A stretch of 63,599 nucleotides of DNA, filler included, from Folioceros fuciformis (GCA_049999805.1; 7 parts of 7 records of this genome joined end to end with filler, not necessarily neighbours in it); one strand, 5' to 3'; shown: positions 20,021-61,190, counted from the first letter of the whole stretch. The notes: a model not told the origin generated them from the letters alone. Numbers and translations are program-made.

Positions 20021-21456
20021 CATGTTCAATTCAATTCATATATATTTAAATCTTTTTATTAGTTTATAATTAGGTAGTTTGGATCAGTAAATTAAATTAT
20101 TATATTAATTATAAGATTTTGTAGAATGGTAGATATGTTATTTACATTAATCATCATTATAAATGTATGAAACTTCAATATGGTTAAGTTAGTATTCGAC
20201 CACCCAACAGTGGCCGTGAAGGAGCTTAAATGTCAAGAGCTCTTAATGGCTTAGGCTAAATGGACACAAGTGCATCCTACGTTCTAGGATTGAGCATCCT
20301 TGCTTGCATCAGTTCCTAGATGTGCTCAAATCTATACTTAGATGAAGTGCTTAGATGCCCTCAAACAATACTTAGATGGCTTGCTCGGATGGCTACTTGG
20401 ATAGGGTGCGTATTGGGAAGGATGACAAGATGCCTTGAGGAGCAAGTAGCTAGGAGGAGCTTGAACCTCTTGAAGGGTTCTCTTAGTTGTGAACACACCT
20501 CNNNNNNNNNNAACCTCTTGAAGGGTTCTCTTAGTTGTGAACACACCTCAGCCAAGGATGTTGAAGCGATGGATTCATGGATACTCGCTTGGAACTGAAT
20601 CCAGAGGTAAGTTCATTAAAAAATCGTAACGGTCGGCGGAGGCAGCAAAATGAATCGTCTCCACAATTCGCAATCGAAATGAAACATGTTAACGAACGAA
20701 AGGCTAATCGGTTGCGGAAGTCATGGAGGACGTGCGGACATCAAATATATGTACTGTATGTGGAGGGCTAAGAGAGTAGGCAGCTAATATGGAGTGACGG
20801 CAGGTTAAGGATAAGATGTGGGATCGTGAGAGACACAGGAGGTTTCTGCCGTGCTGTTTGTTAGAGGGTGAAACTCGCCGCGTCTCATGATTAGCAGGCC
20901 GACAGCAGCGGGGAGAAGTGTGAGGACTGTGTTTTCAGCCTGGGTGATGCTAGCTACAGCAATTCCCTCCCCCTCAGCTAAATTCCAGAATTCTGGATCC
21001 TCACTGTCTGCTTTTCCGAGCAGCAGTAGCAGGGACTGACACGATTCTGCTGGTAGAGATGTAATCGATTGTGGAGGGCGCGATCTGAGGCAGAAAGGTC
21101 TCCAGTGTTTCTCACGGAGGTCTAGCCCGGCCCGGTCCGGTCCGGTCCATTCCAGTCCAGTCCGGTATACTGCACTCCTGTTGTTGGTGGAGCTGTGCAG
21201 TGCTGTGCCCTCGCTGCGTGCGTGCATGCAGTGGTGGAGGCTGTGAATTCTGCTTGAGGAGGGACACAGGCGGCGTGGTTTGTTTTCTTCCGTTCGTTGG
21301 TCGGATCTGAGCTGGTAGCTTGTCAGCTGGTTGGTGCAATGCCAATCCCGGATTTCGGAGCAGTTGATATTAGGGCTCCTCGGGGCGTCTGATTTTGTCG
21401 GTCCGGGAGGATTGCAGGAAAATTCTGGTGTGGTTGCTTACGCAATTCTGCTCGAC

Positions 21457-24247
21457 ATGGGGTACGTGAACATACCGGACGAAATCAAGCCAGGGCGGAA
21501 CCAGGTGGTGATGGAATTCGACCGCGCTGAGCTTGCGCATGTAATATCTGTATTGCAGACGGTGCTCAAGGAGCTTTCTGTGCCGAACATGAAGCCGCAG
21601 CAGCAGAATCTTCAAATCACTGCTTCTTCTTCGCATTCTGGCGATGCTTGGCTGGCCTCTCCCTCTCCCCGGTCTCGATCTCAGGAGTCGATTTTTGGTG
21701 CAAGTCCTCACTTGCTTCCTCTGGAATCTTCTCTATTTTCTGGTCCATTCCCTTCGTCGGGGAGACCAGTTAGGGAGGGGCCTTCTACTGCACTAGGTAT
21801 GGGGTCACCTTTAGGGGCTGGATTGCAGCAGCGACTCGGAATGGAGATGGAACTCGATCTAGGGCTCATTGGTTCTGGTGATAGGGGGAGTCGTTCTGCT
21901 TTGGCCAACACACTACCTGCCTCAATTGCTTCTGTCAGCCTTACACCTTTAGCTCCACCTAGGCCTGGTGAATCAAGGCCTGTGAAACCTCTGCCACCTA
22001 TAGCTCCTCCAGTTCCTGCTGCAGCACTCACCTACTCCGGTGCACAGCAGCCACCGCCGTGGTCCCCAACAAGCTCTCAGGCATTCAGCATAGCTGGTCC
22101 TGCTCAGATCCAGAATGTGGGATCTTCTCCTGGTCCTTCGCAGGCTCAAGTGCAAGCAGGAGGTCCAACTGGACTGTCCCAAGCCAAGGTGCCCCGGATT
22201 CAGATCTCGGCAGGCCAGGCCATTGCGACAGTCAAACGTGGAAAAGCCACTTCGCCAGGTTCTTCCCAGGTGTTTCCGGTTACTCACGGGCAATCAGAGC
22301 TTAGCCTGAGGCCACCTGAAGCGGGTCAGTCAAGAAGTTATGCTGGAACACAAGCAGGATTTTTGCCCTTGAGACAGGGCCCACTCCAAGTACCTACGGT
22401 CTCATCCCCTGGCTGGCCTAGCAATGAGGTCAATGGAAATGGTGGAGTGGAGCAACTGAGAAGGGGTCAATGGGGTAACGCCTCTGATGATGCCAATGTA
22501 CTGAGCAGTCTCGCAGGAAATATTGATAAGATGAACATTGGCCAAGGTGGGGGCTCTCAATTTAGACCACCAGTTGCGCTTGGTCCAATGAGTGCAAACG
22601 GCAACACAGCAAGGGGGCTTTCTGGGCCCCATCCCAGTATGCAATCTCCAAATTTGCAAGCGCAAGGCTCGTCAGGGGCTCCAGGGAATCTCAACCATAT
22701 GCAGTCCCCTGGCTTGGGTGGTCCTTTTCCACCTGTATTTGCTCCTCCTGAATCGAAATTCAGTAAGGGTGGCTTAGTAAGAGTGCCCATTGAATCCACT
22801 TTGTGGAAGGGTCGGTGGACAACAGCAGCTCTTGAGCATAATCGTGAAAGTGTGATAAACCTTATGTACTCTGCTTCCTTTGAGGGTTTATTAGAGCGAG
22901 ACTCACATACTGGCTGGTTGGTGAGCTCTTCAAAGAATTTGATCAACCTGTGGGAGTGCATGGCACAGAAGAAGGGCACGGAGTCCCCACTACAGGTATT
23001 TTCTCCAATGGTTAGGGATGTAGTTGACCCTAAGGTTGTGACGTTGTTTCTTTCTTCCGTCTGCCCCTGCCCTGCATCGGTATGGTTGAGTCTGTAGATG
23101 TACTGTATGCGTCCACTGTGCAGCGGATGTCTATAACTGCAAATCGCTGACGGCTGCAGTGATGTGTTGGCTTGACATTCCTACCTGTTGTCTACTTATC
23201 TATGATATTCGAAGAGGAGATTGTCCACACAGGCCAGCTAATAAGGCTACCTTGGTGTGCAGTTAAGCCACTCACAGGCAACTGAGTTCGTCATGGAGAG
23301 CATGGATATTGATCGTCTTTCTAATGTGATGATATCCATTGGTCCTAACCCTCGAGAAGCTGGATTTTGCATTCCCATTCACAGCTTACGTGGGGAGACA
23401 TTCTTTTCTTACAGTGTGCGTTAAACGTGCTCTCTTTGTTTTCCTTCAGTGATCCATGAGGAAACGGGTCTTTGGTGGTTTGTGGTTCATAGTTATGCAC
23501 CTGATTTTGTGGTCCTTTTGTTACCAGGGCACGATCCGGGTACCTGATAACGCCGGCATCAGCGCTCTCAGAAAACAGGCTTCCAACCCTGGGTACTTGC
23601 ATGTCATATCGCTCAGCGCTGCAGGTGGTCCTCTGCGGACTTCCTTAGCCGCAGCTGTTGGAGTAGATGTGCTGGTTTATGATCTCTCGGCGGTGACAGC
23701 CAGCAACTCCCCATTATCACCTCCTCCTCCTCCGAAGGCATACTGGAGAGCTCATGATGCTCCAATATCAGCCATACACCGCAGCTCTTTTGCCTGTGCT
23801 CTAGTGACAGGTGCTGCAGATGGAAGTATCCGATTGTGGGACATGAAATCGAAACCTACTGCTCCTGCACGTCACTTCCAGCAACAGAAGCAAATTACAG
23901 GCTTATCGGTACTTGATCAGGTGACTGTGACTTCGTGCAGCGGAGATGGACTTGTTCAACTGTGGGATTTAAGGCAAACAAGCGGTGCCTTGCTCACCAT
24001 CAATCCTGATGGACGACCTGTGGTAAACATGAGTGCCAATCCGGGCACGGAAACAGTTGCCCTGACTACTCGAAAGGGTTTATATTGCTGGGAACTGTCT
24101 AAAGTGCCGGGAGGTAGCTCTTTGTTATCCCCTTTCACTCCGCTCCCCCCTGCGGGCCCGTGCACAGCTATGAAATGGAACGAAGATTTGATGGAGGTTT
24201 ATGTTGCAAGTGTGGATGGCACAATCAGCGTCTTCGCCAAAGTGTAA
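21457..24247 (+). CDS. WD40-repeat protein with a long Pro/Ser/Gly-rich disordered region (3 exons)
   Basis: Exons about 21457-22995, 23263-23415 and 23528-24247 join in frame. WD motifs AHDAPISAI...LVTGAADGSIRLWD, SCSGDGLVQLWD, VASVDGTISVF. Confidence 0.8.
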
Positions 24248-29314: not shown

Positions 29315-29611
29315 NNNNNNNNNNNNNNNNNNNNNNNNNNNNNNNNNNNNNNNNNNNNTTAATTAATTAANNNNNNNNNNNNNNNNNNNNNNNNNNNNNN
29401 NNNNNNNNNNNNNNTATTATTATCGTGTATATGCCTGACCTTAAATATTATCTTGCATACACATGTTATACAGTTTAAAGGCTGCAGTCATGGACAGTTT
29501 GTGAACCTTATAAGGAGACTAGCCCTTGCGATCAAGCTTGTTGAAATTACAAATCCCTTGACAAACTTTGTGATTAACAATGAGAAAGGCCTACCCACCC
29601 GCAAAGCTGAA

Positions 29612-32598: not shown

Positions 32599-35183
32599 AT
32601 GTACAACGGGGTGGGATTGCAGACCCCGCGGGGCTCAGGGACCAATGGATATATCCAGACCAACAAGTTCTTCGTGCGGGTGCGGCCTCTCAACTCAGAG
32701 CCTCAGGAGTTTCAAAATGGTCAAGGCACCGGAGGGGTTTCTCGCAAAGCCAATGTGGAGATTCTGGAGCACGACAGGAAGAGGCAGATCCAGCTGAAGC
32801 TCACGCTGCTGGAGGACACGCTCTTGGAGCAAGGATACTCTGAGGTGGAGATTTTGGAGAGAGTGGAGGCTGCCCGTAAGTCTTTGGAGGCTGCAGCAAC
32901 AGCTTTGAATGGCGCCGATGAGCCCGTCAGGTTTGTCTACGTTTCTTCCTGCATCTTTGTTTGATAGGTTACGGTTCGGTGAGGTTGCTTTCACGTGTGT
33001 CAATGTGTGCTGGTCCTGTATGTGTCTGGTGGGGGATGGAATCTAGTCACTGAACAACCTTGTCCCTCTAAGTACTCATGAGAATCTTGACCTGGTTTGA
33101 TAGTGTAAGACAGCAATTTAATTTATCGGAGGCACACTGCAGTGTTAGTTTTAGGTCATAGTTCTTCTGCAGGCTGTTGCTGAGAGGACGTGGAGCAGAG
33201 ATGAATTTCTCTTTCCGGAGGCATTGCTCGCGTCGAGCTGGACGGCCCCGTTCTGCCTGGAACTCTCAGCCTTCATACACACAGCGGCAAATCATGATGT
33301 GGACTAATAATCTGCCTTAGTCCACCTGTGTATTGAACGATTATTGGTAGCGCAGTGGAATTTGTATTTTTTCTGGTGAGACACAGCAGAGAGCAGTCCA
33401 ATCTATTGTACATACAGCTCAGTAAGTCCTTGAGGTCATAGTCCCTGGGTAGACTGATGGTTGCAAGATGTGTTTTGAGGATGTTCCTTTGTACTGATGC
33501 AGTGCTCTCTTTTAGGTTGATGGTCTCGTTTGTATGGGGTTTTCAGCCTGCCTACGTGTAGAATTTGCTTACATCCTTTTGGTCTGCGGGATGTACAGGT
33601 TTTCTGAGACAGAGACGCATCAAATTGCTGCCAAGAAGGAGCGTCAACTGCAAACTATGAAGTCAGCTCTGGGCATTGATGATGCGAAAGAAGGAGAGGC
33701 ATTTGACCGAGAACTGCAGGAGCGTCGGAAGCAAGAGAGAATAATGGAAAGAGAGGAAAAGGAGGCAAAACGCAGGGAAGCGCAGCTTGAATTTGACAGG
33801 CAGCTGAAGGAAAAGGAGAAAGAGTTGGAGAAACTGAAAAGAAAGCAAGAGAAAGAGGAGCGCAAGCAGAAGCAACTGGAGGAGGAAAAGCTTCGGGAAG
33901 CCAAGAAGAAGCAAAAGGAGGAGGAGAAACAAGAAAGGCGGAATGCAAGGCGCAAGAGGGAGGAAGAAGTCCTTGAAGAGAAACGAAACAGGAGACGGGA
34001 GAAGCGCAAGGAAGAAGAGTATGCGTCAGAGGATGGGAAAGATCCTCGTACCAGGAAGAAAGAGGCTCGTAGAAGAGAAGATTCTGATGATGACCGCCAG
34101 AAGCCTAGCAGAAGACGAGTGCGGCAGAAGGGAGGAGATTCGGAGGAAGAGCGAGAAAAGTCTAGCAGGAGACGAGAGAAGTACAAGGAAGACGTGGAGG
34201 AAGGTAGAGACAAGCCTGGCAGAAGACGAGAGAGGCACAAGCACAAGGAAGATTTGGAGGATGAGCAAGAGAAAACCAGCAGGAGACGAGAGAAGCGCAA
34301 GGAAGAATTGGAGGAAGAGAGAGAGAAGCCTAGCAGGAGGCAAGAGTGGCACAAGGAAGATTCAGAGGATGAGCGGCAGAAGCTTGACAGGGGAGGAGAC
34401 AGGCTGAAGGCTGAAGATTCAGAGGAAGAGAGAGAGAAGCCTAGTAGGAGGCAAGACAGGCACGATGGAGATTCAGAGGATGAACGGCAGAAGTCTAGCA
34501 GGGAAAGGGACAGGCAGAAGCTAGAAGATCTAGCGGATGAGAGACAAATGCATACCAGGAGAAGGGACAGGCATAAGGAAGATCCGGGTGATGATGGGAA
34601 AAGACCTGGCAGGGGGAGGGACGTGCGTAAAGGAGATGGTTCAGAGGACGAGAGAGAACAGCCTATTAGGAGAAGGAATGTCCACAAGGCAGATAATTCT
34701 ACGGAGGTCGAGAGAGAAAAGGCCAGTAGAAGGGACAGGCAAAAAGTAGACGATTCGGAGGGAGAGGAAGGAAAGCCTAGCAGACGGAAAGACAAGCTCA
34801 AGGGAGACGACAGATCCGATGAGGAGAAAGAACATCCCAGTAGGAAAAGAGACAGGCACAGGGGAGAAGACTCAGAGGATGAGAGAGAGAGGTCTGGCAA
34901 GAGACGTGCAAGGAACAAAGGAAGAGATTCATCGGATGAAGAGAAAGAACACCCCAGCAGGAAAAGAGAGAGGCATAGGCGAGAAGACTCAGAGGATGAC
35001 AGAGAGAGGTTTGTCAAGAGAAGCGTGAGGTACAAGGAAAGAGACTCATCCGACGAGGAGAAATGGACTTCCGGAAGGAGAAGAGACATGCATAAGGATG
35101 GAGGCTCATCAGATGAGGAGAGACAGAAACCAAGTAAGAGAGTTGAGCAGCGCAGAAGACAGAGGGATGCGGAACATCGGTGA
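32599..35183 (+). CDS. CWC21: Pre-mRNA splicing factor CWC21/cwf21 (SRRM2-like) with long charged RE/RD repeat tail; exons 32599-32930 and 33599-35183
   Basis: Diagnostic N-terminus [22 protein letters not shown]; cwf21 domain [23 protein letters not shown]. Confidence 0.93.
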
Positions 35184-36878
35184 GCCATGTGGCGTGCATT
35201 CTTCGTGGGCTGTGCATCAGCTGTTAGACTATGGGCCAGGGAGATCCTTATAGCTGTGAGCGTTGACGTGTGTTCATGAAATCAACGTTGGCCCCTAGAC
35301 GCCTTGAGTATTTATCACCTACCCTTCCCTTTAAGAGTCGAGGGACAAGTGCAGAGAGATCCTGGAGCTTTGGCAGGTTTTCAAGCCATGGTTTACAAAA
35401 TCTGTAATTGTACATTTCTGATTGCTTGCGCGTAACCTTTTGTTTTGTCCAAGTTGTTTATTGTCGCTGGAAGACGTGGGCCAAAACTACAGTGCGCAAC
35501 GGCTGGCGGGCGAGGCACAAATCTTTGTCAATTGTAGAGGATGAGACACGGGGACGCATGTTGAACTGCCTTTGACTGTGTATTCAGCGGTCCTGCCTGC
35601 ACACGGAAGGCACTTTTCCCAAGGAAGCAACAAGACACCTTCTTGAAGATCCGATGATCCAACAGATGAATGATCTGTCAAGATTATGCTCGGTGCAGTC
35701 GGCAGAGTGTAGAACTGTGGAAACGTGTGACTAGAACACGCATGACGTGGCTGTAGCCTGGATGAAGGGGGGGAGTGTGGACACACGAAATGGAATCTTC
35801 TGACTGGGTGAAGCCTGTCATCAAGCCATGAAACATGTTGCAGCGGAGGTTCTATTCCAATTTCGAAGCTGACAGCTGCTGGTGACAGCAGCAGGACAAG
35901 CTGTGAAGCGCGTGGATTGATGGATTGCCCGTTTTCTAATCCTCGCAAGGGGTCATGGTGAGAGGAAGCCTGGTCGAAATCTCTGCAGGTCTTGTGATGA
36001 AACACGCGTCACTAAGCGTGTGGGGGTGTAGCAGAAGTCGATGCTCCTCGCGTATGGAACGCGGATCTCATGCTCAACCCGTAGAGGCCGTTGGGGTTGA
36101 AGGCTCCGGTCACGTTTCTCGTTCTTGTGGCGCAACCTCACAGGCGGCACCGTTTCACGGCTCTCCTCTGTCGTATACGAGGGATTGCGAGTTCTCGCTC
36201 TCCGCACCGCCGGAGGATTACAACGCTATGCGACTCAATTAATTCACGCAAGTCTCGCTTTCATCGGGTTCACTTTCTTTTCGACATCTGTATGTCCCCC
36301 GAAACCCTGCTCATAAGATTAAGATTCGGAGCAAGACGCATTACGTTGTGTTATATGGCCTACACGAATCTGACGCTACCGTTCCGTTGCTCACCTGTTT
36401 CACACTGCGGGAAATTATTTTCACGCGGTAATCACGGTAGAATTGGATGTGAAGCGAGATTATTTCCACGGTGGACGAATAGGCGTTGGACCTGACAAGA
36501 TCAAAACATGCAGACACAGCACAGATATCAGCGACTTGATTTTATTTCGAGCATAATGTCAACATCCTCATGTGACATGACATTAGTCCTGATTTCTCAG
36601 AAAGGGGAAATCTTTCCTTCATTACCGACAAAAATTAATTGTTGCGAATGCAACATTCTCAACTAAAGATGTAATCCCACAAAACACCATGTACAAAATG
36701 TACTTGTACGAAGGCCGGGAAGCAAATAAAGACAAAATGCAACTATTGCGGAAGATGAATGTGTTAGACGCTGAGCAACTATCAACCAAAATTGACATCC
36801 TCAAGATGGCAAAGCCACAACCACGGTTCTGCACAGAGAAGACCTCCCCCAAATGAAGGCAACTTTCACGTGCAACTG

Positions 36879-39119
36879 TCAACAATAGGAAAGCTTAGAG
36901 TGTCCGATCAGTGTGGAGGACAGCTTGGACTTGTTGACAGCGCAGCTCCTGAGATGATCGTCGGAAAGGTACGTGTATGAACTGAAGCTACGCTCTAAGC
37001 TACTCAGAATCTCACGCTCACTGCTCACATAGCCCTCCCGCCATCTCTCTTCCACTCGGCCCTTAAAGATTTCAAACATGGAATGGGGCTCATGCTGCAT
37101 CAGGCGCAGAACATCAGCAATAGTCTGCCCTTGGACACAATCCTGAATATCATAGTTGGCAGTACCCTTCTCTTGAACCACATGCACCACATTGGTACTG
37201 CCAAACAGATTGTGCATACCTCCAAGTATCTCTTGATACGCTCCTCCTAGGAACAAGCCCAAATAGTAGGGCTTTCCAGGCTGCAAAGGGTGCAGTTCTA
37301 AATAGTGCTTCTGCTCTCCATACACATCCTTCCCAATAAAGTTTGAGATCTTCCCATCACTGTCACAGGTCAAGTCACAGAGAACGGCGCGTGCTGTGGG
37401 TTCCTCCTCGAGACGGTGAAGGGGCATAATTGGGAAGAGCTGGCCAATCGCCCAAGTATCTGGCATGGACTTGAAAACCGAGAGATTAACATGATAGGTG
37501 GCGTTGTAGGATGACGAGAATTTGTTAGCTGCTGGCATCACTTTCTTGGGTTCGCTCACGTTCTTCATACCGTCCACGACCCCCATATACTTGTGGTGCT
37601 CTGACTCACGGGCGGCAGCGGCAACCACCTCATAAATGCTGTCAACAGTAGCACGAACCTCCAAACTGAGTAGCCCAATCTTGAAGAGGCGGGCACATTC
37701 GGCCTTCATTTTAGAAGCACACTCAAGGGCTGCATTGTAGTCAGCAGACTTCATCAAATAAGCTTTCATCTCCTCATGCATGGCGACAACTTCCTTGGGA
37801 AGGCCGTCATACCTGAGGTCCAGGGAAATCCCATGATCCTTGGCAGCAAAACCTCCCTTCTGGTGAGCCGTAAGCACATCAAAGACCAAGACTGACTGGT
37901 GAGAAACAATGGCACGTCCACTCTCACAGCAAAGCGTAGGCTGCTTCACATTCTTGAGGATGCACGCATCCTTAATGGCCCCAATAACCTCCTCGGCGTA
38001 CTCCTCGACAGTGTACCCGATTGACATATCCGAAAGGGCGGAATGAGATCCATCGTAGTCAACTCCCAGGCCCCCACCGATATCGATGACATTCATGTGG
38101 GCTCCCATCAACGCAAGCTCGCAGAAAATGTGTGCGGCTTCACTCACTCCTTCTTGTACGATGCTCAGCGATGGAATCTGAGAGCCTATGTGGAAATGCA
38201 ACAGCTGCAAGCAGTCCAGCATTCCATGGCGACTGAGCTTAGCCACAATTCTCACCATTTCGGATGTGGATAGACCAAATTTACCGTCATCTCCCGAAGT
38301 GTCCCCCCAGTGGCCTCCGTGCTTGGTGCTGAGTTTCGCTCGGAGGCCGATGACCGGTTTCACATCCAAGTACTGGCTGGTTTTAATGACAACGTCAAGC
38401 TCCTCCTCCTGCTCTAGGACGATGATGGAGTTCAGCCTCATCTGCCTAGCTATGAGAGCCAAGCCGATATACTCAGAATCCTTGTAGCCGTTGCAGATGA
38501 GCAGCGCACTGGGGCTGCCCTTGCACATGCAGGACATAACGGTGAGTAGCTCCGGCTTCGAGCCGGCCTCCAGGCCGTAGTGAAACTCCTTCCCGCACGC
38601 CACAATGTCCTCCAAAATGCGCCGGTCCGGATTGCACTTGACGGGGAACACTCCACGGAACACGCCCTGATAATTCCGAGCTGCGATGCCCCGCACAAAC
38701 GCCTTCTGCAACGTCTCCAGCCGATGCTTCAAAATGTCGGGGAATCGGATGATGAGAGGCAGACTCATTCCCCCCCGGCCCTGGCCTGCCGCTGGGTTCT
38801 TATCCAGAATCCTATCCACAAGCTCCATGAGATCAATCTCTTCCCCCGGCAGTGTGTCCAGGCCGTGAGGGTGCACAGACATGTTCCCACTGTCATTGAC
38901 GTGGAAGTATGGCGCACCCCATCCCTCCAACTTGTAGGTGGTGCGGGACTTGGCAATAGTCCAGCCTGCAGGAGCCGGCCCCGGTCCCGGTCCCGGCCCA
39001 GGCGCTGCTGCTCCAGCATTGTAGTCGTAACCTTTGCTCGATTGAAGATCGATCCTGCAAGAAATATCCCGAGTCCCGTAGAAGGACTCGGTGCCAGACC
39101 TCAATGCTAGGGGGGGCAT
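36879..39119 (-). CDS. ADC: Arginine decarboxylase, intronless CDS, 746 aa
   Basis: WGAPYF, PLIIRFPDIL, PLP-lysine motif FPVKCN, GLEAGSKPELL, HFHIGSQI, DIGGGLG, DLTCDSDG, GAYQEILGGMHNLFG. Confidence 0.98.
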   Translation of the reverse strand: MPPLALRSGTESFYGTRDISCRIDLQSSKGYDYNAGAAAPGPGPGPGPAPAGWTIAKSRTTYKLEGWGAPYFHVNDSGNMSVHPHGLDTLPGEEIDLMELVDRILDKNPAAGQGRGGMSLPLIIRFPDILKHRLETLQKAFVRGIAARNYQGVFRGVFPVKCNPDRRILEDIVACGKEFHYGLEAGSKPELLTVMSCMCKGSPSALLICNGYKDSEYIGLALIARQMRLNSIIVLEQEEELDVVIKTSQYLDVKPVIGLRAKLSTKHGGHWGDTSGDDGKFGLSTSEMVRIVAKLSRHGMLDCLQLLHFHIGSQIPSLSIVQEGVSEAAHIFCELALMGAHMNVIDIGGGLGVDYDGSHSALSDMSIGYTVEEYAEEVIGAIKDACILKNVKQPTLCCESGRAIVSHQSVLVFDVLTAHQKGGFAAKDHGISLDLRYDGLPKEVVAMHEEMKAYLMKSADYNAALECASKMKAECARLFKIGLLSLEVRATVDSIYEVVAAAARESEHHKYMGVVDGMKNVSEPKKVMPAANKFSSSYNATYHVNLSVFKSMPDTWAIGQLFPIMPLHRLEEEPTARAVLCDLTCDSDGKISNFIGKDVYGEQKHYLELHPLQPGKPYYLGLFLGGAYQEILGGMHNLFGSTNVVHVVQEKGTANYDIQDCVQGQTIADVLRLMQHEPHSMFEIFKGRVEERWREGYVSSEREILSSLERSFSSYTYLSDDHLRSCAVNKSKLSSTLIGHSKLSYC

Positions 39120-39173
39120 GCTTTCAGGTTACCGCTCAAGTACAGAATCCTGCGCAGGACGCTCCTGGCCAGA

Positions 39174-39950: not shown

Positions 39951-40154
39951 GAAACCAGGAACGAGTCTAGCAAGAAAGAGGGGGGGCGAAAGAGCACAGC
40001 GGAGACGAGCCCAGGAGGCAGCAGGCCCGCGCAGTCAGAGGACAGAGCCGGTATNNNNNNNNNNNNNNNNNNNNNNNNNNNNNNNNNNNNNNNNNNNNTT
40101 AATTAATTAANNNNNNNNNNNNNNNNNNNNNNNNNNNNNNNNNNNNNNNNNNNN

Positions 40155-41080
40155 GCCGAGTTGCAAATTGAGATCGCAGGGTGTGTGATTAAAAAGGTAC
40201 CTCTGGACACAGGGTCTAGAGTGAACATCATGATTGAAGACATGGCCCGGAAGCTGGGGTTGGAGATTGAGCACACCGCCAAAGTTTTGCGATTGGCAGA
40301 CATGTCGAAAATGGCACCCGTTGGGAAGATCCTTGGAGTTTTGACTCACATCGGCACCATTCCATATCTTATGGATTATGTGGTGATTAAGCAGAAGGCC
40401 CTTGGATATAAAGTATTGATTGGAAGAACCTGGATGTATGGTGCCAGATGTACCTTTGGGTGGGGGCGAAAGGAGGTAGGTTTTAAGCCGCTGGATTGGG
40501 ACCCAAAGACCAAGGAAGGAAGGATCTGTTTGTCGTGGAGCAAGGACATGTACACTAGAGAGACCTCGTCTGAAATAGATGGATACACCTCAGCCAAAGA
40601 AACGGACGGACAAGCAGATGAGGACAAGAGGTTTCCTTTTGCACACATCTCTTGGTCGGAGGAGGAGAAGGATTATCAGCGCCACCTACCCCTGGTCAGC
40701 TGCTACAGAATCATGGCAGATGGTGAGAATGTGGAGTCAGAGTCGGAGGAAAGGAAGCCGACTACCGCGGTAGTTGAAGGGGAACGGGAGGTAGCCGTCT
40801 CAACTACTTCAGTAGCCCAAGGGGAACAGAAGGTAGCCCACTCGACTACCGAGGTAGTCGAGTCAGTAAAATCAGAAGAGGAGGAACCAAAGGAGAAGCC
40901 GCCTAAGTTGGATGAGACACGAGAGGCCGTCATGAAAATTACCTCCGAAGAGCTCTTCCGTGAGTGGGGGATGAGGGAAGCAGAACCCCAAAGACCTGAG
41001 GAGGGATTTGGCGTCACCTCTGCGCTAGTGGAACGAGAGTGGGTGCAGGCAGACGAGATCAAGGATGTGGAGGTCCTGCC
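40155..41080 (+). mobile_element. Ty3/Gypsy-type retrotransposon fragment (aspartic protease and linker), interrupted by a Copia insertion
   Basis: VPLDTGSRVNIM...LRLADM...YKVLIGRTWM retropepsin motifs; includes a 42-nt (14-aa) repeat TTxVxxGExxVAxS. Confidence 0.8.
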
Positions 41081-44000
41081 TGATGAGAATCAATAGCTCT
41101 TAGGCAGAAGAGATACAATGCAATTGAATTAAGAAAGTAAAGAGTACAAGCCTATACATAGGCTAGGTGGTTAGGTGGTTAGGTGGTTACAACCATAAGT
41201 TGTTGTAACCACTAGGTAGTTGCAACTAATATAACAACTAACTACCTAGAGCAACTAATTAAGTAACTACTTTATGCCCTAGATAATGTTTAAGTAAGGT
41301 GCCCTAATGAATAGTGCCCTAACCTAGATATATTTCATCACTCCCACTCACTATGAATGTAGGGGTGAGAGCTAGCTTCAAAAAGAGACCTAAAACATGC
41401 TTAAGCTCCCACTTAATGAGAAGTTATAAGCTTAAAAGAATTAAACCTGATAGCTGAAAGTAAATCTATACCAAAATTGTTTTGTATTTGTTAACCGTGC
41501 ACGCATAGGGGGCAAGTATGCAGAGTTTCATCAAAACTCCGCATTTAAGCACCCCAAGCTCAGATCAGTACTGAGTTGGGGGACTTGTGAGTGTGCCTTT
41601 TGAAAAATAAAGGCCTAAAAAGTAATAGGCCATGAATAAGTTGAAACCAGTATACTCTGGCATTAACCGCCTCCGTCCCCGTCCACCAATTGGCTGTCTT
41701 AAATGCCCCTATCCCTGTCCACCGATTGGTGGACAACCAGGGATAGGTGCGGCCGTTAGACCGGCTGGGCCCCCCTACATGGGGCACGCCCATCTTTATC
41801 GGGCACCATAAGCAGGCAGAGATAGCGCATCCCCGAGGTTCCTCCTCAAAGCGCACCCTTCGGGCATGGAGGCTCTGCCCTAAGCGCCTTGGCCGTGCGG
41901 GAGCGCCCCCTTCCTTACGGGGGAATCCACTACTCAAATGCTGCAAATACAAATGCTGCAAATACAAATGGCCGCGACTCAAATGCAGATGTTTCTCCAG
42001 AATATTCTCCAAATGCAAATGTTTCTTCTCTAGATTATTCTCCTCCAACCAGCCCTTTTTATAAAATTAGTGAGAATGCCGAGGATGCCGATGCAGCGCT
42101 TCTGAATGATGAGGATTGGGACAACATCGGTATCGAAATTCGGACCAATAGAGCTGGATTTGCTGGTGCATATAGAGTTGAAAATCATGACTCACATATA
42201 GGCCCTCCTATCCTTAAAAGTGAGTTGTAAAAGCCCTTTTATTTGGTCTTGATGAGTTTATAATGCTTTGAATATTCTAATGTTGTTTTTGCCCTTTGTA
42301 GTTGAAGATGGTGCCATGGATGTAACCCCTTGTCAAAAACCTTCACCTCCTTCATCAAAGAGCCATAGTGAAGATCATAATGTACCAGAGATGCCCAATT
42401 CTTGTAGGCTCCGTGCTTCACTGCCTAGTTCACCGAATCCACCAAATGATGACAACCTTGAGGTGGAGTTTGATGAAGAGGTGCTCACCGCCAATTCGAT
42501 AAAGACCTCTCGCCAAGCAGTATGCGAGGGGAGCCCAAGTTGACCATGAGATGGGGGCTCCTCCAAGTAGTAAGATGTAGCTAGATACAGATTTTCGGCT
42601 GTCTGGGTCTCCACCATAATCAGCGTCAGCATATGCTCTTAACTTTAATTTGGATATGCCGTGTGAATGCTTATACATCAGTCCTGTGTGCATAGTGCCT
42701 TTGAGATACCTGAATATGCGTTTGACGCATTGCCAATGTTCTTCTAGGATTCTCCAAAAAATGTGAGACTGCACTAACTTCAAAAGATATCTCTGGTCTA
42801 GTGAAGTTGCTTAAGTATATTAATGTACCAACATCATGTCTGTATGGTACTGGTGACATTTCTTCTTTTTCAGCATTTGTCTTAGGGCTCATATCAGAAA
42901 TGAGCCGTGTGCCACTAGGGAATGGTGTGGCAGCAGGTTTAGCATCTTCAAGTCCAAACTTGGCTAAACTTTCTTTTATATATTTTGCTTGAACTAGGCT
43001 GATGGATTTATTACTTCTATCCCTTATAACATTGACGCCAAGGGCATAGGTTAGCTCTCCCAAGTCCGTCATTTCATAGTGACTTCTTAACCAAGCTTTA
43101 ACTTCCGCTAGGTGGGAGAGTGAAGATGATGCTAAGAATAGGTCATCCACATAAAGTAAGAGGTAAAGTGTATGTTGTTTTGACTTTAAGATATACATAC
43201 TTGCATCAGCTTTGCTTTGAATAAAGCCATACTTCATTAGCTTGTCATGTATATCTTTGTTCCATTCCTTTCCAGATTGCTTTAGGCCATAGAGACCTTT
43301 GATTAGTCTAAATACCATATCTTCTTTGCCTTTGACCTCATAACCCTTAGATTGTTTCATGTATATTTCTTTTTGAATGCGTCCATGTAAATAAGCAGTT
43401 TTGACATCCATCATGTGAAGGTGTAAATCATGTTGAGCGGTCAAGGCAATTATCATTCTTAAGAAAGAAAATTTTGCTACTAGAGCATAAGTAGCCCAAG
43501 GTATGTGATCTAAACCCGGTATTTGGGTAAAACCTCTGGCTACTAGTCTTGCCTTATATCTCTCAATGGAACCATCACCCTTGCGTTTAATTTTGAATAT
43601 TCATTTACTCCCAACTATTTTTCTCCCTTTGGGTGGTTTGACTAATTCCCATGTAGAGTTCTTAACTAGGGAGTCATACTCAGAGTCCACTACGGCTTTC
43701 CATAAGTCTTTCTCAGGAGAGGAAAAAGCTTGATTCAAGGTTAGTGGCTCTTCAGGGTCAATAGTGGCTTTATAAACAGCTTGATAAAAATGGGAGAAAG
43801 GTGAGGAGGGATCATCAAAAGTAGTAAGGTATCCCAGAGGTGGTTCCTTCCATCCTACAGGTCCATAGATAGTAGGTCTAGATCTTAGGTTGTACCTTGG
43901 TGCAAGTTGTACATCTTTGTTGACAACTTGTTCTGAAGTGTTATCGTCTTCTTCAAAAGCTGGTTCATGTATAGGAGGAACCGGCTCATCTTCATCCAGA

Positions 44001-44660
44001 TACTCAGGCTTAGAAAGTTCATTGTCCGGGATATCAGGAAGATCTTCAAGGTGTTGAGGAATTTCCATATCTGGATCTGGAGTAGTTGGTCGTCTTGGAG
44101 AAGATGGCTCCTCCTCCTCCTGCAATATAGGTGCAACCGGAGGAGAGGAAGGGGTGGAATGTAGGGTAATAAATTCGTCATTATCAAAAGACGAAGGCAT
44201 ATGATGATCGTCAAGAACGAAAACAGGGGAATCCACTGAAGGAGATAATATAGGAGACTCATGAAAAGTAACGCTGAGGGCATATATGAGTCGCCTGGTA
44301 ACTAGATCAAATAATTTGTATCCTTTGATACCTTCGGTATAACCAATAAAGGTATACTTGGCAGCCTTGTCATCTAACTTTTTGCGCTATGATTTAGAAT
44401 ATAAACATATGTCGTACAGCCAAATACCCGAAGGTGATCGATGGAAGGTTTTCTGCTAGTGAATGCTTCATAAGGTGTCATACCTTTAACCATTGAGGTT
44501 GGAAGTCGATTAATGATGTAGGTTGCTGTTATCATTGCTTCTACCCAATATGGTTTAGATAACCTTGAAGGCATAGATTCTTATTTTTGGCTACACCATT
44601 TTGCTGGGGTGTATAGACCACCGTGAGTTGTTGAGCTATACCTTATGCTCGACAAAAATC
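41081..44660 (-). mobile_element. Ty1/Copia element 1 (degenerate INT-RT-partial RNaseH) with 3' LTR 41081-41340 and PPT 41341-41348
   Basis: MDVKTAYLHG, LYGLKQSG, LLYVDDL, YADADY, VYTPQQNGVA. LTR bounded by TGATGA...TCATCA; purine tract adjacent on the minus strand. Confidence 0.9.
41826..42543 (+). other. Putative spliced antisense accessory ORF inside Copia 1 (intron 42220-42301)
   Basis: 82-nt GTGAGT...TTCTAAT...TTTGTAG intron joins ORF 41889-42219 in frame to ORF 42302-42543 (ILK|IEDGAMD). Confidence 0.5.
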
Positions 44661-48227: not shown

Positions 48228-48327
48228 NNNNNNNNNNNNNNNNNNNNNNNNNNNNNNNNNNNNNNNNNNNNTTAATTAATTAANNNNNNNNNNNNNNNNN
48301 NNNNNNNNNNNNNNNNNNNNNNNNNNN

Positions 48328-51300
48328 TATACTTCATCACTCCCACTTGTTGAGAGCGTGTTAAGTACAGTCTTATGGTATTCCTTGTGCTTGGTTCCTC
48401 GTGGGCGTAAAGCCTCTCGAGCTTCAGTCCTTCCCAGCTGCCAACTCTGTTTGCTAGTGGCTGGTGCAATGGAGTGTGAGAATGAGATGCCCCTTGCAAC
48501 CAGGTACGCCTGGTACATAATGACAGCTTACGCTATCATTGTGCTTCATTTCAAGATTCTAGCTGTGGAGAAGAGCACTCGCAGCTATGTCTTCTGCTAC
48601 GACCCCCTCTGATGACGCCCCTCGGAGGCCTCGGGCTTACCATCGTGATGCCCTTGGACGTTTCTCAGCTAGAACACCTGCTACAGGAGGACGCCAGGAA
48701 CTTGCTGATACTGCTGCCAGGGGTTCCTGCTCATCTCGGCGTCCAAGAGGAAGGCCGCCAGGGCGGCGTGGCAGAGGAAGGGGCAGGGGCTCGAACGCCG
48801 CTGCTGCACCGGACATGGGCGCACCCTCGCGAGGTGCTCCACATGCTAACAGTCCCCGAATTGCAGCTACAGAGCGCCGGTTTGGTAACGGCGAGTACGC
48901 CTACTCTAATTGTGGGGCTTTGCCTCCTATGTCGTTCCACTTTCCACCAATCAGAGACTACAACGAGGAGACGAAGGTGGTCTGTCCAGGGAATATGAAG
49001 CATCCTGGATCGCCACTATGGTATCGCTGCAGTGTGACAGGCTATATCCTGAGACGCGTTAAAGTCACCATGTGCAGGGAGCATCCCGCACACGCGGTCA
49101 GCTTTTACAGTGAGTGTCTTCAGACACCATGTTTTCCATAGCCCTGATTACGTTTCTTGTGCTCCCACTCGCTTGAGAATTCCTGACAATCACATGTTGT
49201 TGCCTCTTGTAGGGACTGACACCCGGCTCAGGGAGGAGGAGCGTCTCGAATCTGAAGAGCGTATCTCTTATCAGGAGAGGAGGAGACGTAACAGTCCTCT
49301 TGAGGGCGAGAGCTTCACCACGTCTGAAGAGCTGGACTCTGAAGATTCTGAAGAAAGAGAGAACAACACTGATGACTCTGAAGATGAAGCGAGCTTCAAC
49401 TGGGATCCTTAGGGCTAGGATTTCCTTTTTGCTGTTCAGACTTTGCTGCTAAGGAAGTCTTGCGACCTCCCAAGTCCCATACTTTGCATATGTCTGTTGT
49501 GGAGTTCACGGCCTAGGGCCTTTGTTAAAATATCTGCTGGGTTGTCTGTGGTTGGCACGTAGTCCAGAGATATTTTTCCTGCTGTGACTTGTTCTCTAAT
49601 GTAGTGGTACTCAACTTCCACGTGTTTTGTTCGTGAGTGGAAGACTGGATTCTTTGCTAGAGCCATGGAACCCTGATTGTCTGTGTAGACTGTGGTACAG
49701 GTAGGTAGATCAATTCCCATTTCCTGGAAGAGTAACTTGCACCATACTATCTCCTTTGCTGCTGCTGTCAAGACCCTGTACTCTGCTTCTGTGCTTGATA
49801 GGGCCACAGTAGGTTGTTTCTTAGATGACCAGCATATGGGGCTGCCAGTATAAGAGATCACATATCCTGATACTGACTTCCTGGTGTCAATGTCTCCTGC
49901 ATAGTCAGAATCTGTGAAGGTCTCTAGGTCTAGAGTCTTTCCTTCATGGTGCTCATATTTTAAACCTACGTCAAAGGTTCCTTTCAGATAACGAAACACT
50001 CGTTTCAGGCTCTGCCAATGTTCCTGTCCAGGTTGTTCCAGGAACTGTGATAAAACGCTTGTAGCATAGGCTACATCGGGCCTTGTCGTGTTTGAGGCAT
50101 AGATTAGTTTTCCTACGCCTTTCCTGTATGGCACCTTGGCCATTGCATCCTTTTCTGATTCTGTTTGTGGACACATTGACTTACTCAATTTAATTCCACT
50201 AGGTAAAGGTGTCGATGCTGGTTTTGCATCCTTGAGGCCCATTTGCTCTGCGCAATTCATGAGGTATCTCGGCTGTGTCAAAGTAATCATTCTCCTTTTT
50301 CTGTCTCTTTGAATGTGTATTCCAAGACAACTTCTTAGAGGTCCGAGATTTGTCATCTCAAATTTTTGAGCTAACAGCTGGTTGAGCTTAGTAATGTAAG
50401 CTTCATTGTTGCAGGTGACAATCAAGTCGTCCACATAGACAGCAAGATAGCAGACTACGTCATCTGATCTGTAAACGTACAAACTGCCATCTGCTTGACA
50501 TTTTACAAAACCTAGAACACGCAGCTCCTCATCTAGGACTGCGTTCCATTCCTTAGCTGATTGCTTGAGCCCATACAGAGTTTTGATTAGCTTGAGGACA
50601 TGGTCCTCCTTGCCTTTCACTTCATAACCTGGAGGCTGCTGCATATATATCTCTGTGTCTAATTTCCCATGTAGGAATGCTGTTTTAACATCAAACATAT
50701 CTAACTCATAGTCTTTGTGGGCTGCAACAGCACAGAGGATACGAAAAGTTGCCATCTTCACAACTGGAGCGAAGGTTTCCAGGTAATCTAGTCCTGGTAC
50801 TTGTGAAAATCCTCGGGCTACGAGTCTAGCTTTATACCTGTCAAAGGTACCATCAGCTTTCACTTTGAGTTTGAAAACCCATTTACATGAGACCATTTTA
50901 CGGCCTGGATGTAACTTGGCTAGCTCCCAAGTTCCATTTTTAATCAAAGAGTCATATTCTGACTGTATGGCCTTTTTCCATTCAGCAGCATCAGGTCGAC
51001 TAAGTGCCTCCTCATATGACTGTGGCTCTATAGGATCCAGCAATACAGAGGTGACATGTGCTGTCCGAAAATCATGTGACTGATAAAAATCTGGAGGATG
51101 TCTTTCACGCTGTGGGTAGCGTCGTTCAGGTTGAGCAGCAGGGAGTGCTGGCTGCAGAGGTGCCGAGTTGTCATGAGCTACCTGGTCAGCATCACCAGCT
51201 TCAACTTCAGCTACTGCGTTCTCCACATCTGAGTCCACATCAAGAGGTAAAGGATCGAGAGGATGTGGCTGCTGTACTGGATCAACAGCATCCCCAAAAA

Positions 51301-52654
51301 CTGGTACAACGCGTGCCATGTCAGGTTCAAAATCAGGTGCTGGTGGATCCTCTTGTTCCCCACCTGCAGGAGCAACATCCTCAGGAAGATCCTCAAAGTA
51401 TGATACATCCTGTTCAAGATGTTCCCAACTATCATCCTCGAGAGCATAATTGTCTGAAGCTCCCACTGGCCAGAAACGATTTTCATCAAAGGTAACGCTC
51501 CTGGAGTAGATGACATGATTGGCTGGCACATCATATAGCTTATATGCCTTGATGCCTTCAGTGTAACCTAACATCAGCAATTTCTGGGCTTTGTTAAACA
51601 GCTTCTTGCGCTTCTCCCTGGGGACGAAGGCATACGCAACACAACCAAAAGTCCTCAAATGCAGGATCTTGGGCTTGTGTCCATAGAAGGCTTCATAGGG
51701 AGTCATCCCTTCAACAGCACTAGTAGGCAACCTGTTCCTTAGGTAGACAGAGGTTGTAAGGGCTTCTGCCCAGTAGGACAGGGGGAGGTGAGCATGATTC
51801 AGCAAGGAAGATGTCATCTCCTGCAGAGTAAGATTCATGTGCTCAGCCACCCCGTTCTGTTGAGGTGTGTAAACAACTGTAAGCTGCCTGGCAATTCCTT
51901 CATCTGTACAGAAGGTCTGAAAGTCATGTGAGGTAAATTCCCCACCGTTATCTGAACGCAGGGTTTTCAGCTGCTTCCCTGTCCAGCGTTCTGCAAACTT
52001 CAAGTAAGCTTTGAAATGTGAAAAGCATTCACTCTTGGCCTTGAGGATATAGGCACTAACAAAACGGGTTTTGTCGTCTGTAAAGGTAAGGAAGTATCTC
52101 CCACCACCGAGAGAAGGCTTTGACAAGGGGCCACATAAGTCTGTGTGCACCAACTCCAAGACTTCAGATGCCCTATGAGGAGCTTTATTTCTGAAAGCTG
52201 CTTGATGGCGCTTAGCAAGAACACAAGGTTCACAAAGAGGTAAAGGCACTAATTTGCCTATAGGGCCATCTGCATAGAGATCACTTACGGCTATCTTCTG
52301 TAACTTGCTGTTGTGTGGGTGACCTAATCTAGCATGCCACAACTTAGATTTGGCTATCTGTTGTGTAGAGGCTTGGGAGTCCTCATGTGTCAGATGGGAC
52401 TGAACTGCACCTCTGGAGCTGTGAAGACGAAACAGGTCATGTTCTGAAGACCCATAAGCTAAAACCTTGCTAGGATTAAAAGCATCTATCACCTTACACT
52501 CTGTATGTGTGAAAAGTATGTGACTGTTATTGTCTATGTTCAGTCGCCTAACGGAGATGAGATTTCGTGTCATCTCAGGTACATAATACACGTCTAAGAG
52601 TGACAAGATAACTCCAGATGGCACAGGCAGCTGTACTGTTCCTATGCCTGGAGA
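48328..52654 (-). mobile_element. Ty1/Copia element 3: uninterrupted pol (49436-52654), about 1.1-kb 3' internal region, PPT 48340-48347 and start of 3' LTR
   Basis: 1062-aa stop-free ORF with GAG-pre-integrase, rve, RT (YVDD) and RNaseH (TDSDYAGD, STEAEY, ADILTK). The LTR/PPT junction TTCATCA|CTCCCACT is the same as in Copia 1. Confidence 0.95.
48587..49412 (+). other. Antisense accessory ORF(s) in the Copia 3 3' region (184 aa plus an overlapping 100 aa)
   Basis: ATG-initiated ORF with RRPRGRPP, RG repeats and a Cys/His cluster. The overlapping frame continues into an acidic tail ending 24 nt from the pol stop. Confidence 0.55.
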
Positions 52655-52754
52655 NNNNNNNNNNNNNNNNNNNNNNNNNNNNNNNNNNNNNNNNNNNNTT
52701 AATTAATTAANNNNNNNNNNNNNNNNNNNNNNNNNNNNNNNNNNNNNNNNNNNN

Positions 52755-55122
52755 TGAAGCAGGAGCCGTTCGAGTCTTGTCCGATCGCCATGCAGGACTT
52801 GACTCCCTGCACCGACCCCAGGGTATGTTGGGGTTTGGTTTGGGATCTGGATCCTGGTTGTTTGTGAGTTTGTGCCGCGGCCGGGCGGGCGCGCCTTCGT
52901 GCCATTTTGTGCCGTGTGTGCCTCATGGATGTGTGTGGCGGGCTTGCTGCAGAGGTGGAAGAAGTTCCCGAAGGCTCGGATGGCATTCAGGGAGAGGCAT
53001 TGCCCCCCGATCTCTGAACGACAGCTCTGCTTGATCCCGCCGCCACAGGGGTACAAGACGACCATCCCGTGGCCCAGGAGCAGGGACGAGTGCTGGTACA
53101 GGTAGGTGCCGCTCGCTAGCACCAGTGGCTGCACAGCTGAAGTTGGCGGATCTGTGACGCCTTCCGTGGGCGGATTCTCGTGTTCCGTGCTGCAGAAATG
53201 TGCCGTACGAGTGGATCAACACCGCCAAGGCCAACCAGAACTGGTTGAGGAAACAGGGGGAGAAGTTTATCTTCCCTGGTGGAGGCACCATGTTTCCCAA
53301 CGGGGTGGGGGAGTACATCAATCTCATGCAGGAGCTCATCCCGGAGATGAAGGACGGCAGCGTCAGGACTGCGCTGGATACTGGTTGTGGGGTAGGTTCT
53401 TCTGGATTTCAGCGTGCCTCAGTCCTTCTGTGGCCAGATCTGCTATCTCCTGGTGGAGCATCGCTCGTGTTGCATAGTTGTTGATAAGGGGCATATGTTG
53501 ATCCGCCGCAGGTGGCCAGTTGGGGTGGAGAACTGCTGGATCGGGGTATTTTGACCATGTCGTTGGCGCCTAGGGACAACCACGAGGCCCAGGTCCAGTT
53601 TGCTCTAGAGCGAGGCATTCCTGCCATTCTTGGTGTCCTGGCTACTGAGAGGATGCCTTTCCCGGCCAATGCTTTCGACATGGCTCATTGCTCCCGCTGT
53701 CTGATTCCCTGGACGGAGTTTGGTAAGTCGGATCTTGTGTTAGACCCTGCGGCAGTACTGTAGTCTGTGTTCTTTCTGTTTCTACCAGGAGGTTCTTGTT
53801 TAACCTTTCAGAACGCTGCAGGCGGTGTGCTGCTCCTGGAGGTCGACCGCGTGTTGCGTCCTGGAGGGTTTTGGGTGCTCTCTGGACCTCCTGTGAACTA
53901 TGAAGTTCACTGGAAGGGATGGGACTCCACTGAACAAAAGCAAAGAAATGATATGGATAACCTTCAAGACTTGTTGCAGCGAATGTGCTACAAGGAATAC
54001 AACAGGAAGGACGACATCGCTGTGTGGCAGAAGCCTTTTGATAACTCCTGTTATGAAGCAAGGAACCCCTTGGACGACGTTGTTCCTGAGCCTCCTATTT
54101 GTGATGACCATATTGAGGCAGATGCTGCCTGGTAAGCCTCACGCACATGGCGCACTGGAGTTTCCTGCAAGACGGCTTCCTTTCTCACTATTTCCTTAGG
54201 TCCTTTACCGTCCTTTGAGCTTGGATGTCCGGAACTGAGCTTACCGTCTGGTGATCGTTGCATTGCAGGTACACTCCGATGAGGCCGTGCATTGTCCCAC
54301 AAGAGAAATCTGCCAAGAAATTAGCCGTTGGTGCCCAGCCTCCTTGGCCAGCCCGGCTCACCACTCCTCCCGATCGCTTGAGCTTTGTGAGTAGTAACAA
54401 CGGGCTCTTCAAGACAGATACTGCATTATGGGTGGAGCGTGTAGCGCACTACAAAACCTTGGTGCCGGACTTGGGTACCAACAAGATTAGAAATGTCATG
54501 GACATGAACACCGAATATGGAGGGTTCGCTGCCGCTCTTATCGAAGATCCTGTGTGGGTGATGAACGTCGTCTCCTCCTATGCTACCAATACACTCGGCG
54601 TTGTCTACGACCGCGGGTTGATTGGGACTCTCAACGACTGGTAAGGGCCTTATTTCCGGCCAGTGGCCTGGTTTTTTCATGCTGTTTGGGGTGGATTCTG
54701 AACTAGAGTTTGATTCAGGTGCGAGGCGTTCTCCACATATCCAAGAACTTATGACCTGCTCCATGTTGCTAGTCTCTTCTCAGCCGAAAGCCACAGGTAA
54801 TCCAGCACCAGATATGTAGTATGTAAGAAGTATGACAGTTTCTCTCGATGCCCGTCTTAACAGCATTTTGTGGTGCAGGTGTGAAATGAAGTATGTGCTC
54901 CTGGAAATGGACCGTATCCTGAGGCCTAAGGGCTTCGCGATCATCCGTGATACTCCCAAGTTTCTGGAGAGTGCCAAGATGTACGGGAAGGCCATGAGGT
55001 GGAAGTGCAAGCAGTACGTATCTTACAAGTCGGATGATCCTCAGGGAGTCTTAGTCTGCAAGAAGACGTTGTGGACAGCGGACGAAGATCAGTCATCTCT
55101 AGGAAGCGGCAGCGGGAGATAG
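52755..55122 (+). CDS. Putative pectin-related SAM-dependent methyltransferase (PMT family, PMT20/21/ERD3-like), 5' truncated by a gap
   Basis: [76 protein letters not shown] introns. Confidence 0.95.
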
Positions 55123-56873: not shown

Positions 56874-57065
56874 TCTACAGGTCCAATAGATGAAAATTTA
56901 GCTAGCGTTCAAATTTCATCTTGAAAATTCTAAAGACTTTTGAAAACGCTATGATGTCTATAGTCNNNNNNNNNNNNNNNNNNNNNNNNNNNNNNNNNNN
57001 NNNNNNNNNTTAATTAATTAANNNNNNNNNNNNNNNNNNNNNNNNNNNNNNNNNNNNNNNNNNNN

Positions 57066-61088: not shown

Positions 61089-61190
61089 NNNNNNNNNNNN
61101 NNNNNNNNNNNNNNNNNNNNNNNNNNNNNNNNTTAATTAATTAANNNNNNNNNNNNNNNNNNNNNNNNNNNNNNNNNNNNNNNNNNNNCA

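Follow-up and report, generated by a model that had tools for sequence, protein, structure and literature searches.

A candidate antisense two-exon reading frame in the spacer that separates pol from the polypurine tract in a truncated Copia element of Folioceros fuciformis

The locus and its boundaries

An open reading frame (ORF) that runs antisense to the pol gene of a Copia long terminal repeat (LTR) retrotransposon is the subject of this analysis. It lies in a 63,599-nt stretch of DNA from Folioceros fuciformis (GCA_049999805.1), here called the window, which is a pseudo-molecule of concatenated contigs: six N44-TTAATTAATTAA-N44 linkers, centred at 29359, 40099, 48272, 52699, 57010 and 61133 and carrying stops in all six frames, split it into separate contigs together with N100 and N10 gaps. 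Adjacency across linkers therefore carries no meaning. The contig with the antisense ORF (48328-52654; 4,327 nt) consists of a 5′-truncated Copia pol, a spacer of 1,088 nt and 12 nt of a putative LTR, nothing more. To the left of 48228 lies another Copia, on the plus strand, and to the right of 52754 a host methyltransferase gene, both in different contigs. A preliminary description of the locus had spoken of an otherwise intact Copia with its 3′ LTR; between its bounding linkers, however, the contig holds a truncated pol, no gag and no 5′ LTR, hence no complete element with two LTRs, and beyond the putative polypurine tract (PPT) it ends after 12 nt.

The pol gene itself is clear. Its Pfam domains follow one another on the minus strand as gag_pre-integrs (residues 65-121), rve (139-237), SH3_retrovirus and RVT_2 (546-790; E 4.4e-62), ahead of the RNase H end, and with integrase before reverse transcriptase (RT) this is the order of Ty1/copia. 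The stop codon occupies 49436-49438. The nearest pol in the databases is only 42-46% identical. In the spacer beyond the stop, none of the minus-strand frames scores as coding by the codon log-odds score described below.

On its far side, the spacer ends in the octamer that the preliminary description had proposed as PPT, CTCCCACT on the plus strand, which is indeed present. The 20-mer across this junction, AGTGGGAG/TGATGAAGTATA (48347..48328, minus strand), recurs with 19 of 20 positions identical at 41348..41329 (minus strand) in another contig, where it follows a second, degenerate Copia encoded on that same strand. The second Copia (minus strand; RT 42671-43600, integrase end 43601-44386) has a pol 41-60% identical to the present one from integrase to RNase H, ending near 42538. 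Because the PPT end and the LTR start are common to two related Copia elements, the putative PPT/LTR boundary of the contig has good support, and the position that the preliminary description gave the ORF, inside a Copia element between the pol stop and the PPT, is likewise supported by this shared junction. At 41329-41348, the junction was seen to continue into a related LTR of the second Copia. The octamer AGTGGGAG also occurs at 41406-41413 (minus strand), 57 nt before the second Copia's junction, and at 49162-49169 (minus strand), within the candidate intron described below; these extra occurrences may be due to chance or represent a duplicated PPT-like motif.

Independent contigs, assembled from two DNA runs that belong to a single sample and study (X1 and X2), cover the same border. 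A single X1 contig spans 48328-50023 and a single X2 contig 48328-49730; they stop 16 and 18 nt past 48328, which places their ends about 30 nt into the putative LTR. Such ends fit a repeat boundary if the assembler used k = 31, which we take to be its value. The features of the contig, with the linkers of the window, are collected in Table 1.

Table 1. Coordinates of the linkers and of the features, in part putative, of the contig with the antisense ORF
Feature	Position	Strand	Remarks
Artificial linkers	29315-29414, 40055-40154, 48228-48327, 52655-52754, 56966-57065, 61089-61188		N44-TTAATTAATTAA-N44
First 12 nt of putative 3′ LTR	48328..48339	-	Reads TGATGAAGTATA; contig ends here
PPT end	48340..48347	-	AGTGGGAG on the minus strand; plus-strand reading CTCCCACT
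Spacer from pol stop to PPT, 1,088 nt	48348..49435	-	Sense-strand coding signal absent
Upstream region, possible 5′ untranslated region (UTR)	48348..48586	+	Five upstream ATGs: 48375, 48469, 48482, 48487, 48520
Candidate exon 1	48587..49109	+	ATG, 174 codons, first base of split codon
Imperfect 18-nt direct repeat, 27-nt spacing	48737..48781	+	Encodes the PRGRP / GRGRG tract
Candidate intron, 103 nt	49110..49212	+	GTGAGT donor at 49110, CTGAC branch-like motif at 49183-49187, TAG acceptor
Candidate exon 2	49213..49412	+	Last two bases of split codon, 65 codons, stop 49410-49412
Copia pol, 5′-truncated by contig end	49436..52654	-	No internal stop; frame open to contig end

The antisense reading frame and its candidate intron

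On the plus strand of the spacer, antisense to pol, an ATG ORF of 184 aa extends from 48587 to 49141, its ATG being the first after an in-frame stop. The translation contains HRDALGRF, RRPRGRPPGRRGRGRGRG and scattered Cys and His residues; ORF, RDALGRF, AT-hook-like and RG motifs are thus all where the preliminary description had reported them. Its length exceeds chance, as an ATG ORF of at least 184 aa arose in only 9 of 2000 dinucleotide shuffles of 48340-49435. A second, acidic frame overlaps the first. It had been described as running from 49110 to 49412 and ending 24 nt from the pol stop; this frame is present, open from 49053 to its stop at 49410-49412, and ends 23 nt short of the pol stop.

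The two frames, whose fusion the preliminary description had raised as a possibility, join in phase at strong canonical GT-AG splice signals. The candidate intron splits codon 175 (one base before it, two after) to give Arg, from where reading continues in the acidic frame, and a pyrimidine-rich stretch at 49200-49212 ends in the acceptor TAG. The resulting candidate coding sequence of 723 nt is in phase, has a single terminal stop and encodes 240 aa. Its exon 1 product is basic and rich in R, A, P and G, with the AT-hook-like PRGRP and RG tract, and with Cys and His in residues 101-174; the exon 2 product is acidic and rich in E, D and S. Accordingly divided, the spliced product has a pI of 11.1 in its N-part and of 4.1 in its C-part.

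How unusual this arrangement is was gauged over all ATG ORFs of at least 100 aa in the window, with a GTRAGT donor in the last 45 nt of the ORF and a pyrimidine-rich YAG acceptor 60-300 nt further on that adds at least 60 codons. One in 58 had both, namely the ORF described here. GTRAGT by itself occurs 54 times in 125,502 strand-positions of the window. We calculate that all these signals would coincide by chance a few times in a thousand, a figure whose true weight is lower as the test was post hoc. For comparison, three introns of the host methyltransferase gene, located by reading and in a different contig, measure 89-137 nt and have similar ends, GTAAGT/GTAGGT...CAG.

In X1 and X2, the spliced frame stays open, with three replacement changes (Q37H, H166Y and one Asp to Asn) and two silent ones. 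The only indel between the window and X1/X2 is a T added after 49131, inside the candidate intron. A frameshift or sequencing error as the cause of the two frames was considered and rejected, since this indel leads into the third frame rather than the acidic one.

Two further scans concerned RNA and repeats: Rfam gave 0 matches and Tandem Repeats Finder 0 arrays. A run that we guess to be RNA (X4) yielded two pieces, both from the RT region, which is uninformative on expression.

Base composition and codon use

The exons differ from the element that surrounds them. Their GC content is 0.52-0.63 and their CpG observed/expected ratio (CpG o/e) 0.62-0.84, close to two host genes of the window (0.52-0.53 and 0.65) and unlike the present Copia pol (0.455 and 0.34) or three other Copia fragments (CpG o/e 0.35-0.44). 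The candidate intron has a GC of 0.456 and a CpG o/e of 0.38, the upstream region 48340-48586 a GC of 0.498 and a CpG o/e of 0.46.

Codon use was scored as log-odds, with about 1,850 host codons from the window as training set. In leave-one-out runs, the in-frame scores of host genes ranged from +0.05 to +0.31, and their out-of-frame scores were negative. Exon 2 reached +0.28 and residues 101-174 reached +0.10, each the top of its six frames; across 369 stop-free segments, the 95th percentile lies at 0.17. The exons thus resemble host genes, and differ from the Copia backbone, in GC, CpG and codon use alike.

Copies, depth and methylation

Within the window, blastn and tblastn found no second copy of the ORF region, and no contig at least 80% alike was found in X1 and X2 besides the locus itself. 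The depth of the contig with the ORF region is 77.1 in X1, against 79 and 78.2 for the pol contigs, and 104.8 in X2, against 108.7-129.9. Among the pieces listed, the locus contigs stand at 77-79 in X1, compared with 13-30 for five others, and at 105-130 in X2, compared with 17-42 for four others. The high depth of the locus might reflect several near-identical copies, with the reservation that depth is not copy number and that there is no single-copy control.

A further run (X3) shows mass C>T and G>A changes (201 and 299 places), a bisulfite-type pattern. Within 49162-49411, as far as 49290, the six G positions of CpG are absent from the listed conversions, in which 23 other G positions appear. 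Among the places listed, the pattern suggests, as a hint only, that minus-strand methylation is confined to CG.

What the spacer holds

Our best reading is that the spacer holds a genuine antisense two-exon coding module, present or former, and we give it about an even chance of being right. It is preferred because of the in-phase intron and the host-like composition of the exons, the latter also suggesting that the module is lineage-specific and was probably acquired.

A considerable body of results weighs against this reading. The product is an orphan: a word-indexed search of 5.8 billion protein clusters returned 0 matches, and an exhaustive HMMER search of 1.84 billion representatives returned two (E 1.6e-4 and 7.3e-4), both judged spurious, as they are bacterial Cys-repeat proteins aligned in 6-7 short stretches. 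Pfam, at E up to 1, assigned 0 families to either exon and only one match far below threshold (E 0.11) to eight other frame segments, while the best match in the PDB had an E of 0.31. The AlphaFold2 model, predicted from the single sequence with no alignment, has a mean pLDDT of 39 and no residue above 70. In residues 1-100, GC at second codon positions (GC2) is 0.80 and the codon score, at -0.03, is topped by another frame, as is usual in GC-rich DNA that does not code; the tract of AT-hook-like and RG motifs within them derives from a short local duplication (48737-48781), and the Glu/Asp/Ser richness of exon 2 alone favours a high codon score. The splice test was set up after the site had been seen. 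In addition, 48348-48586 has no TATA-like motif, a single weak poly(A)-like motif lies downstream of the ORF, and the LTR is nearly absent from the contig, where the preliminary description had thought that transcription might start; the five ATGs between the PPT and the ATG of the ORF would be a burden on such a transcript. The spacer of the second Copia has no similarity to the present one, and that element lacks the ORF. Finally, the 3′ region differs from X1/X2 by 8 substitutions in 1,108 nt, whereas pol, over about 3,190 nt, differs by 6 (p 0.012 in Fisher's test, with 3,219 entered as the denominator for pol), and coding and non-coding positions of this region are substituted alike (5/723 versus 3/350, p 0.72), giving no sign of constraint. 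The X1/X2 changes are too few for a selection test, and they are uninformative, being post-insertion, if the sequences are alleles of one insertion.

Other searches give context to the orphan status. Viral contigs gave 36 and metagenome contigs 598 pattern matches, of which tblastn confirmed none. Clusters of the ESM Atlas matching residues 95-184 were partly labelled Neprosin, with a best score of 0.92 and 157 shared features compared with 170 typical of true family matches; this lead was dropped for want of Pfam backing. As for the Cys/His cluster, which the preliminary description had listed in inferring a nucleic-acid- or chromatin-binding protein, the scattered residues are present, but in the spliced model its last two Cys fall within the candidate intron, and H166 is Tyr in X1/X2; no zinc-finger-type Cys/His family was found in Pfam or the PDB, and no confident fold (pLDDT 26-38 over residues 81-184), so that a nucleic-acid-binding domain in this cluster is left without backing. 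The orphan status is nevertheless weaker evidence than it appears, because sampling is poor for the element family and also for the lineage of the host, which is a non-seed plant: the nearest pol is distant, as noted above, and the host arginine decarboxylase of the window is only 54-57% identical to its best named relatives, from mosses, a liverwort and a lycophyte.

Among the competing explanations, the one we take most seriously, though we consider it rather unlikely, is that the ORF is a product of chance, the spacer being a 3′ part of the Copia RNA, GC-rich and non-coding, in which frames and splice-like signals coincide and yield no product. The failed searches of protein, Pfam and PDB collections and the lack of a confident fold would then need no explanation, nor would the low complexity and high GC2 of the N-terminal 100 residues, which stem in part from the duplication with 27-nt spacing. 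A further frame, free of stops for 170 codons, overlaps this stretch, as is expected in GC-rich DNA; the five upstream ATGs also fit this reading, and substitutions are as frequent here as in the non-coding DNA on either side. What coincidence accounts for poorly is the rarity of an ORF of this length among the shuffles, the strong in-phase intron found in just one of the 58 long ORFs, the host-like codon score of residues 101-240, top of six frames, and the abrupt change in composition relative to pol. Should the ORF nonetheless be a chance product, the finding would be ordinary, and its lesson would be that the intactness of an element is not to be read across linkers.

Host-like exons could also have come from a lineage-specific host gene of which a piece, two exons and an intron, was captured in reverse at the DNA level and is carried as a passenger of no service to the element. 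Exon GC, CpG o/e and codon score are like those of the host and unlike those of four Copia fragments, the size and signals of the intron match the host, and plant LTR retrotransposons do capture genes (PMC7264820, in its available parts). We nevertheless hold such a passenger to be distinctly improbable, given that the window and the protein, viral and metagenome searches yielded no parent gene or homologue, that a random fragment has no need of its own ATG after in-frame stops and its own stop, and that transduced sequences, in the same source, are mostly sense-oriented. Very improbable indeed is a Copia truncated right after its stop, with the ORF as the 3′ end of an adjoining host gene. The host-like composition would suit that arrangement, as would the fact that one X1/X2 contig covers 48328-49487 whereas pol draws many diverged contigs; but the 20-mer of PPT and LTR start in common with the second Copia sits past the end of the ORF that is remote from pol, the 23 nt separating the two stop codons would be the only place for the truncation, and the depth of the ORF-region contig is the same as that of the pol contigs in both X1 and X2. 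We also considered, and rejected, an origin of the GC-rich segment from a nested foreign transposon: neither inverted nor direct repeats border the segment.

How a coding module could work

If the spacer does hold a coding module, its promoter would lie either in the 3′ LTR or in the 240 nt next to the PPT, and the transcript would be spliced and translated. The product is predicted to be largely disordered, its N-part very basic (pI about 11) and its Ser/Glu/Asp tail acidic (pI about 4), and the AT-hook-like PRGRP core together with the RG tract would suit a nuclear, nucleic-acid-binding role. The intron would survive retrotransposition because it is antisense: kept unspliced in the sense-strand genomic RNA, it would travel with the element intact. 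Because the stop of the module lies only 23 nt from that of pol, the 3′ UTR of the antisense transcript would enter the RNase H coding end in antisense and so form a sense-antisense pair with the element RNA. Any antisense transcript that pairs in this way could damp or tune the element independently of a protein.

That the module is a working gene is a stronger claim, and we regard it as unlikely. A Copia element (Pseudoviridae-like) of an early-diverging land plant would then possess an antisense, intron-bearing accessory gene whose protein, with AT-hook/RG motifs and an acidic tail, may act on the chromatin or RNA of the element. Among plant Copia elements, such a gene would correspond to the antisense genes of retroviruses and to the Gypsy proteins known as aORF-3R. 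A Copia example with an intron would in itself mean that a retroelement can carry a gene with its intron when that gene lies antisense, and would provide a small, tractable protein of 240 aa for tests of nuclear localisation and nucleic-acid binding.

The architecture of the predicted product has a parallel in HMGA-like proteins, AT-hook or RG-rich chromatin proteins with acidic tails. Both combine an Arg-flanked PRGRP core and an RG tract with a basic N-part and, after it, an acidic tail; here, by contrast, there is no Pfam match, the motif occurs once only and the tract stems from a local duplication. The PRGRP core is visible in the translation, and the AT-hook model PF02178 gave no Pfam match, a model usually too short to score.

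Relation to known antisense ORFs

Antisense ORFs between pol and the 3′ LTR are on record in Grande, RIRE2, Retand and PvRetro13, with no proven function in the available text of the sources; proposed roles include nuclear or DNA-binding activities and regulation by antisense RNA (PMC7264820, PMC11963269). The preliminary description had given antisense 3′ ORFs as known from some plant elements of Gypsy/Tat type, and that they are known mainly from these agrees with what these two sources and PMC4093653 report: the 15 common-bean families with a reverse ORF2, PvRetro13 included, are all Ty3-gypsy (PMC4093653, Table 2). Such extra ORFs are common in Tat/Retand-type Gypsy elements, none of them with proven function. 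For Ty1/copia, the survey of Neumann et al. (2019) lists 582 elements with extra ORFs of at least 250 codons in 45 similarity groups and gives, in the text available, the sense-oriented SIRE ORF as the sole extra ORF characteristic of a lineage (PMC6317226). With 184 codons unspliced and 240 spliced, the ORF described here falls below the threshold of that survey.

The closest likeness is with the class termed aORF-3R or eORF-3′R (Grande gene23, RIRE2, Retand, bean ORF2), which has the same position from pol stop to PPT and the same reverse orientation. Its members, like the present ORF, are without env-like features, have a predicted nucleic-acid-binding or nuclear character, and are heterogeneous and often without database similarity (PMC7264820, PMC11963269, PMC6317226, as far as available). 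The named examples differ in being Ty3/gypsy, in occupying regions of 3-6.5 kb and in being conserved across copies and species according to the same texts, whereas here the element is a Copia and the ORF is short, an orphan and equipped with a candidate intron. Retand ORFs, moreover, carry Transposase_28 (PF04195), a Retand/Grande-type domain for which neither exon gave a match in Pfam at E up to 1. Going by position and orientation, it is plausible that the module is another case of this known, heterogeneous class, of which a Copia host element and a candidate intron would be unusual traits. A Copia example with an intron, if true, would indicate that such modules arise independently in both superfamilies.

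Two other systems invite comparison. The eORF-3′F of SIRE-clade Copia elements is likewise an extra ORF 3′ of pol in Ty1/copia and highly heterogeneous in sequence (PMC6317226, in part); it is sense-oriented and env-like, whereas the present ORF is antisense, and transmembrane or env-like character was neither looked for nor seen in it. The antisense genes of retroviruses such as HTLV, which reviews cite as analogues, also lie in the 3′ part, with a proposed start at or near the 3′ LTR and a regulatory nuclear protein and/or antisense RNA as product (PMC7264820, in part), but have no sequence relation to this ORF, which is known from sequence alone. No published description of an intron-bearing antisense ORF in a Copia element was found in the literature covered, which did not extend to subscription journals or to the supplementary per-orientation tables of PMC6317226, where 3′ ORFs in reverse orientation may already be on record for Copia lineages, so that its absence is not claimed.

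Other features of the window

Several other open frames were noted in passing. At 33516-35281, stop-free frames of 555 aa (plus strand) and 545 aa (minus strand) overlap on opposite strands with no Pfam match, and a stop-free frame of 592 codons at 21319-23097 (plus strand) has no Pfam match either. An open frame of 313 codons runs from a contig edge at 40155-41096 (plus strand), beyond the LTR start of the second Copia and on the opposite strand; Pfam gives no match for this frame at E up to 0.01, and a retropepsin-like DTGS...LIGR pattern and an acidic tail can be made out by eye. Host genes in the window include a clathrin heavy-chain exon (8997-10133, minus strand), an apparently intronless arginine decarboxylase gene of 749 codons (36882-39128, minus strand) and a multi-exon methyltransferase-like gene, named by eye, at 53290-55122 (plus strand).

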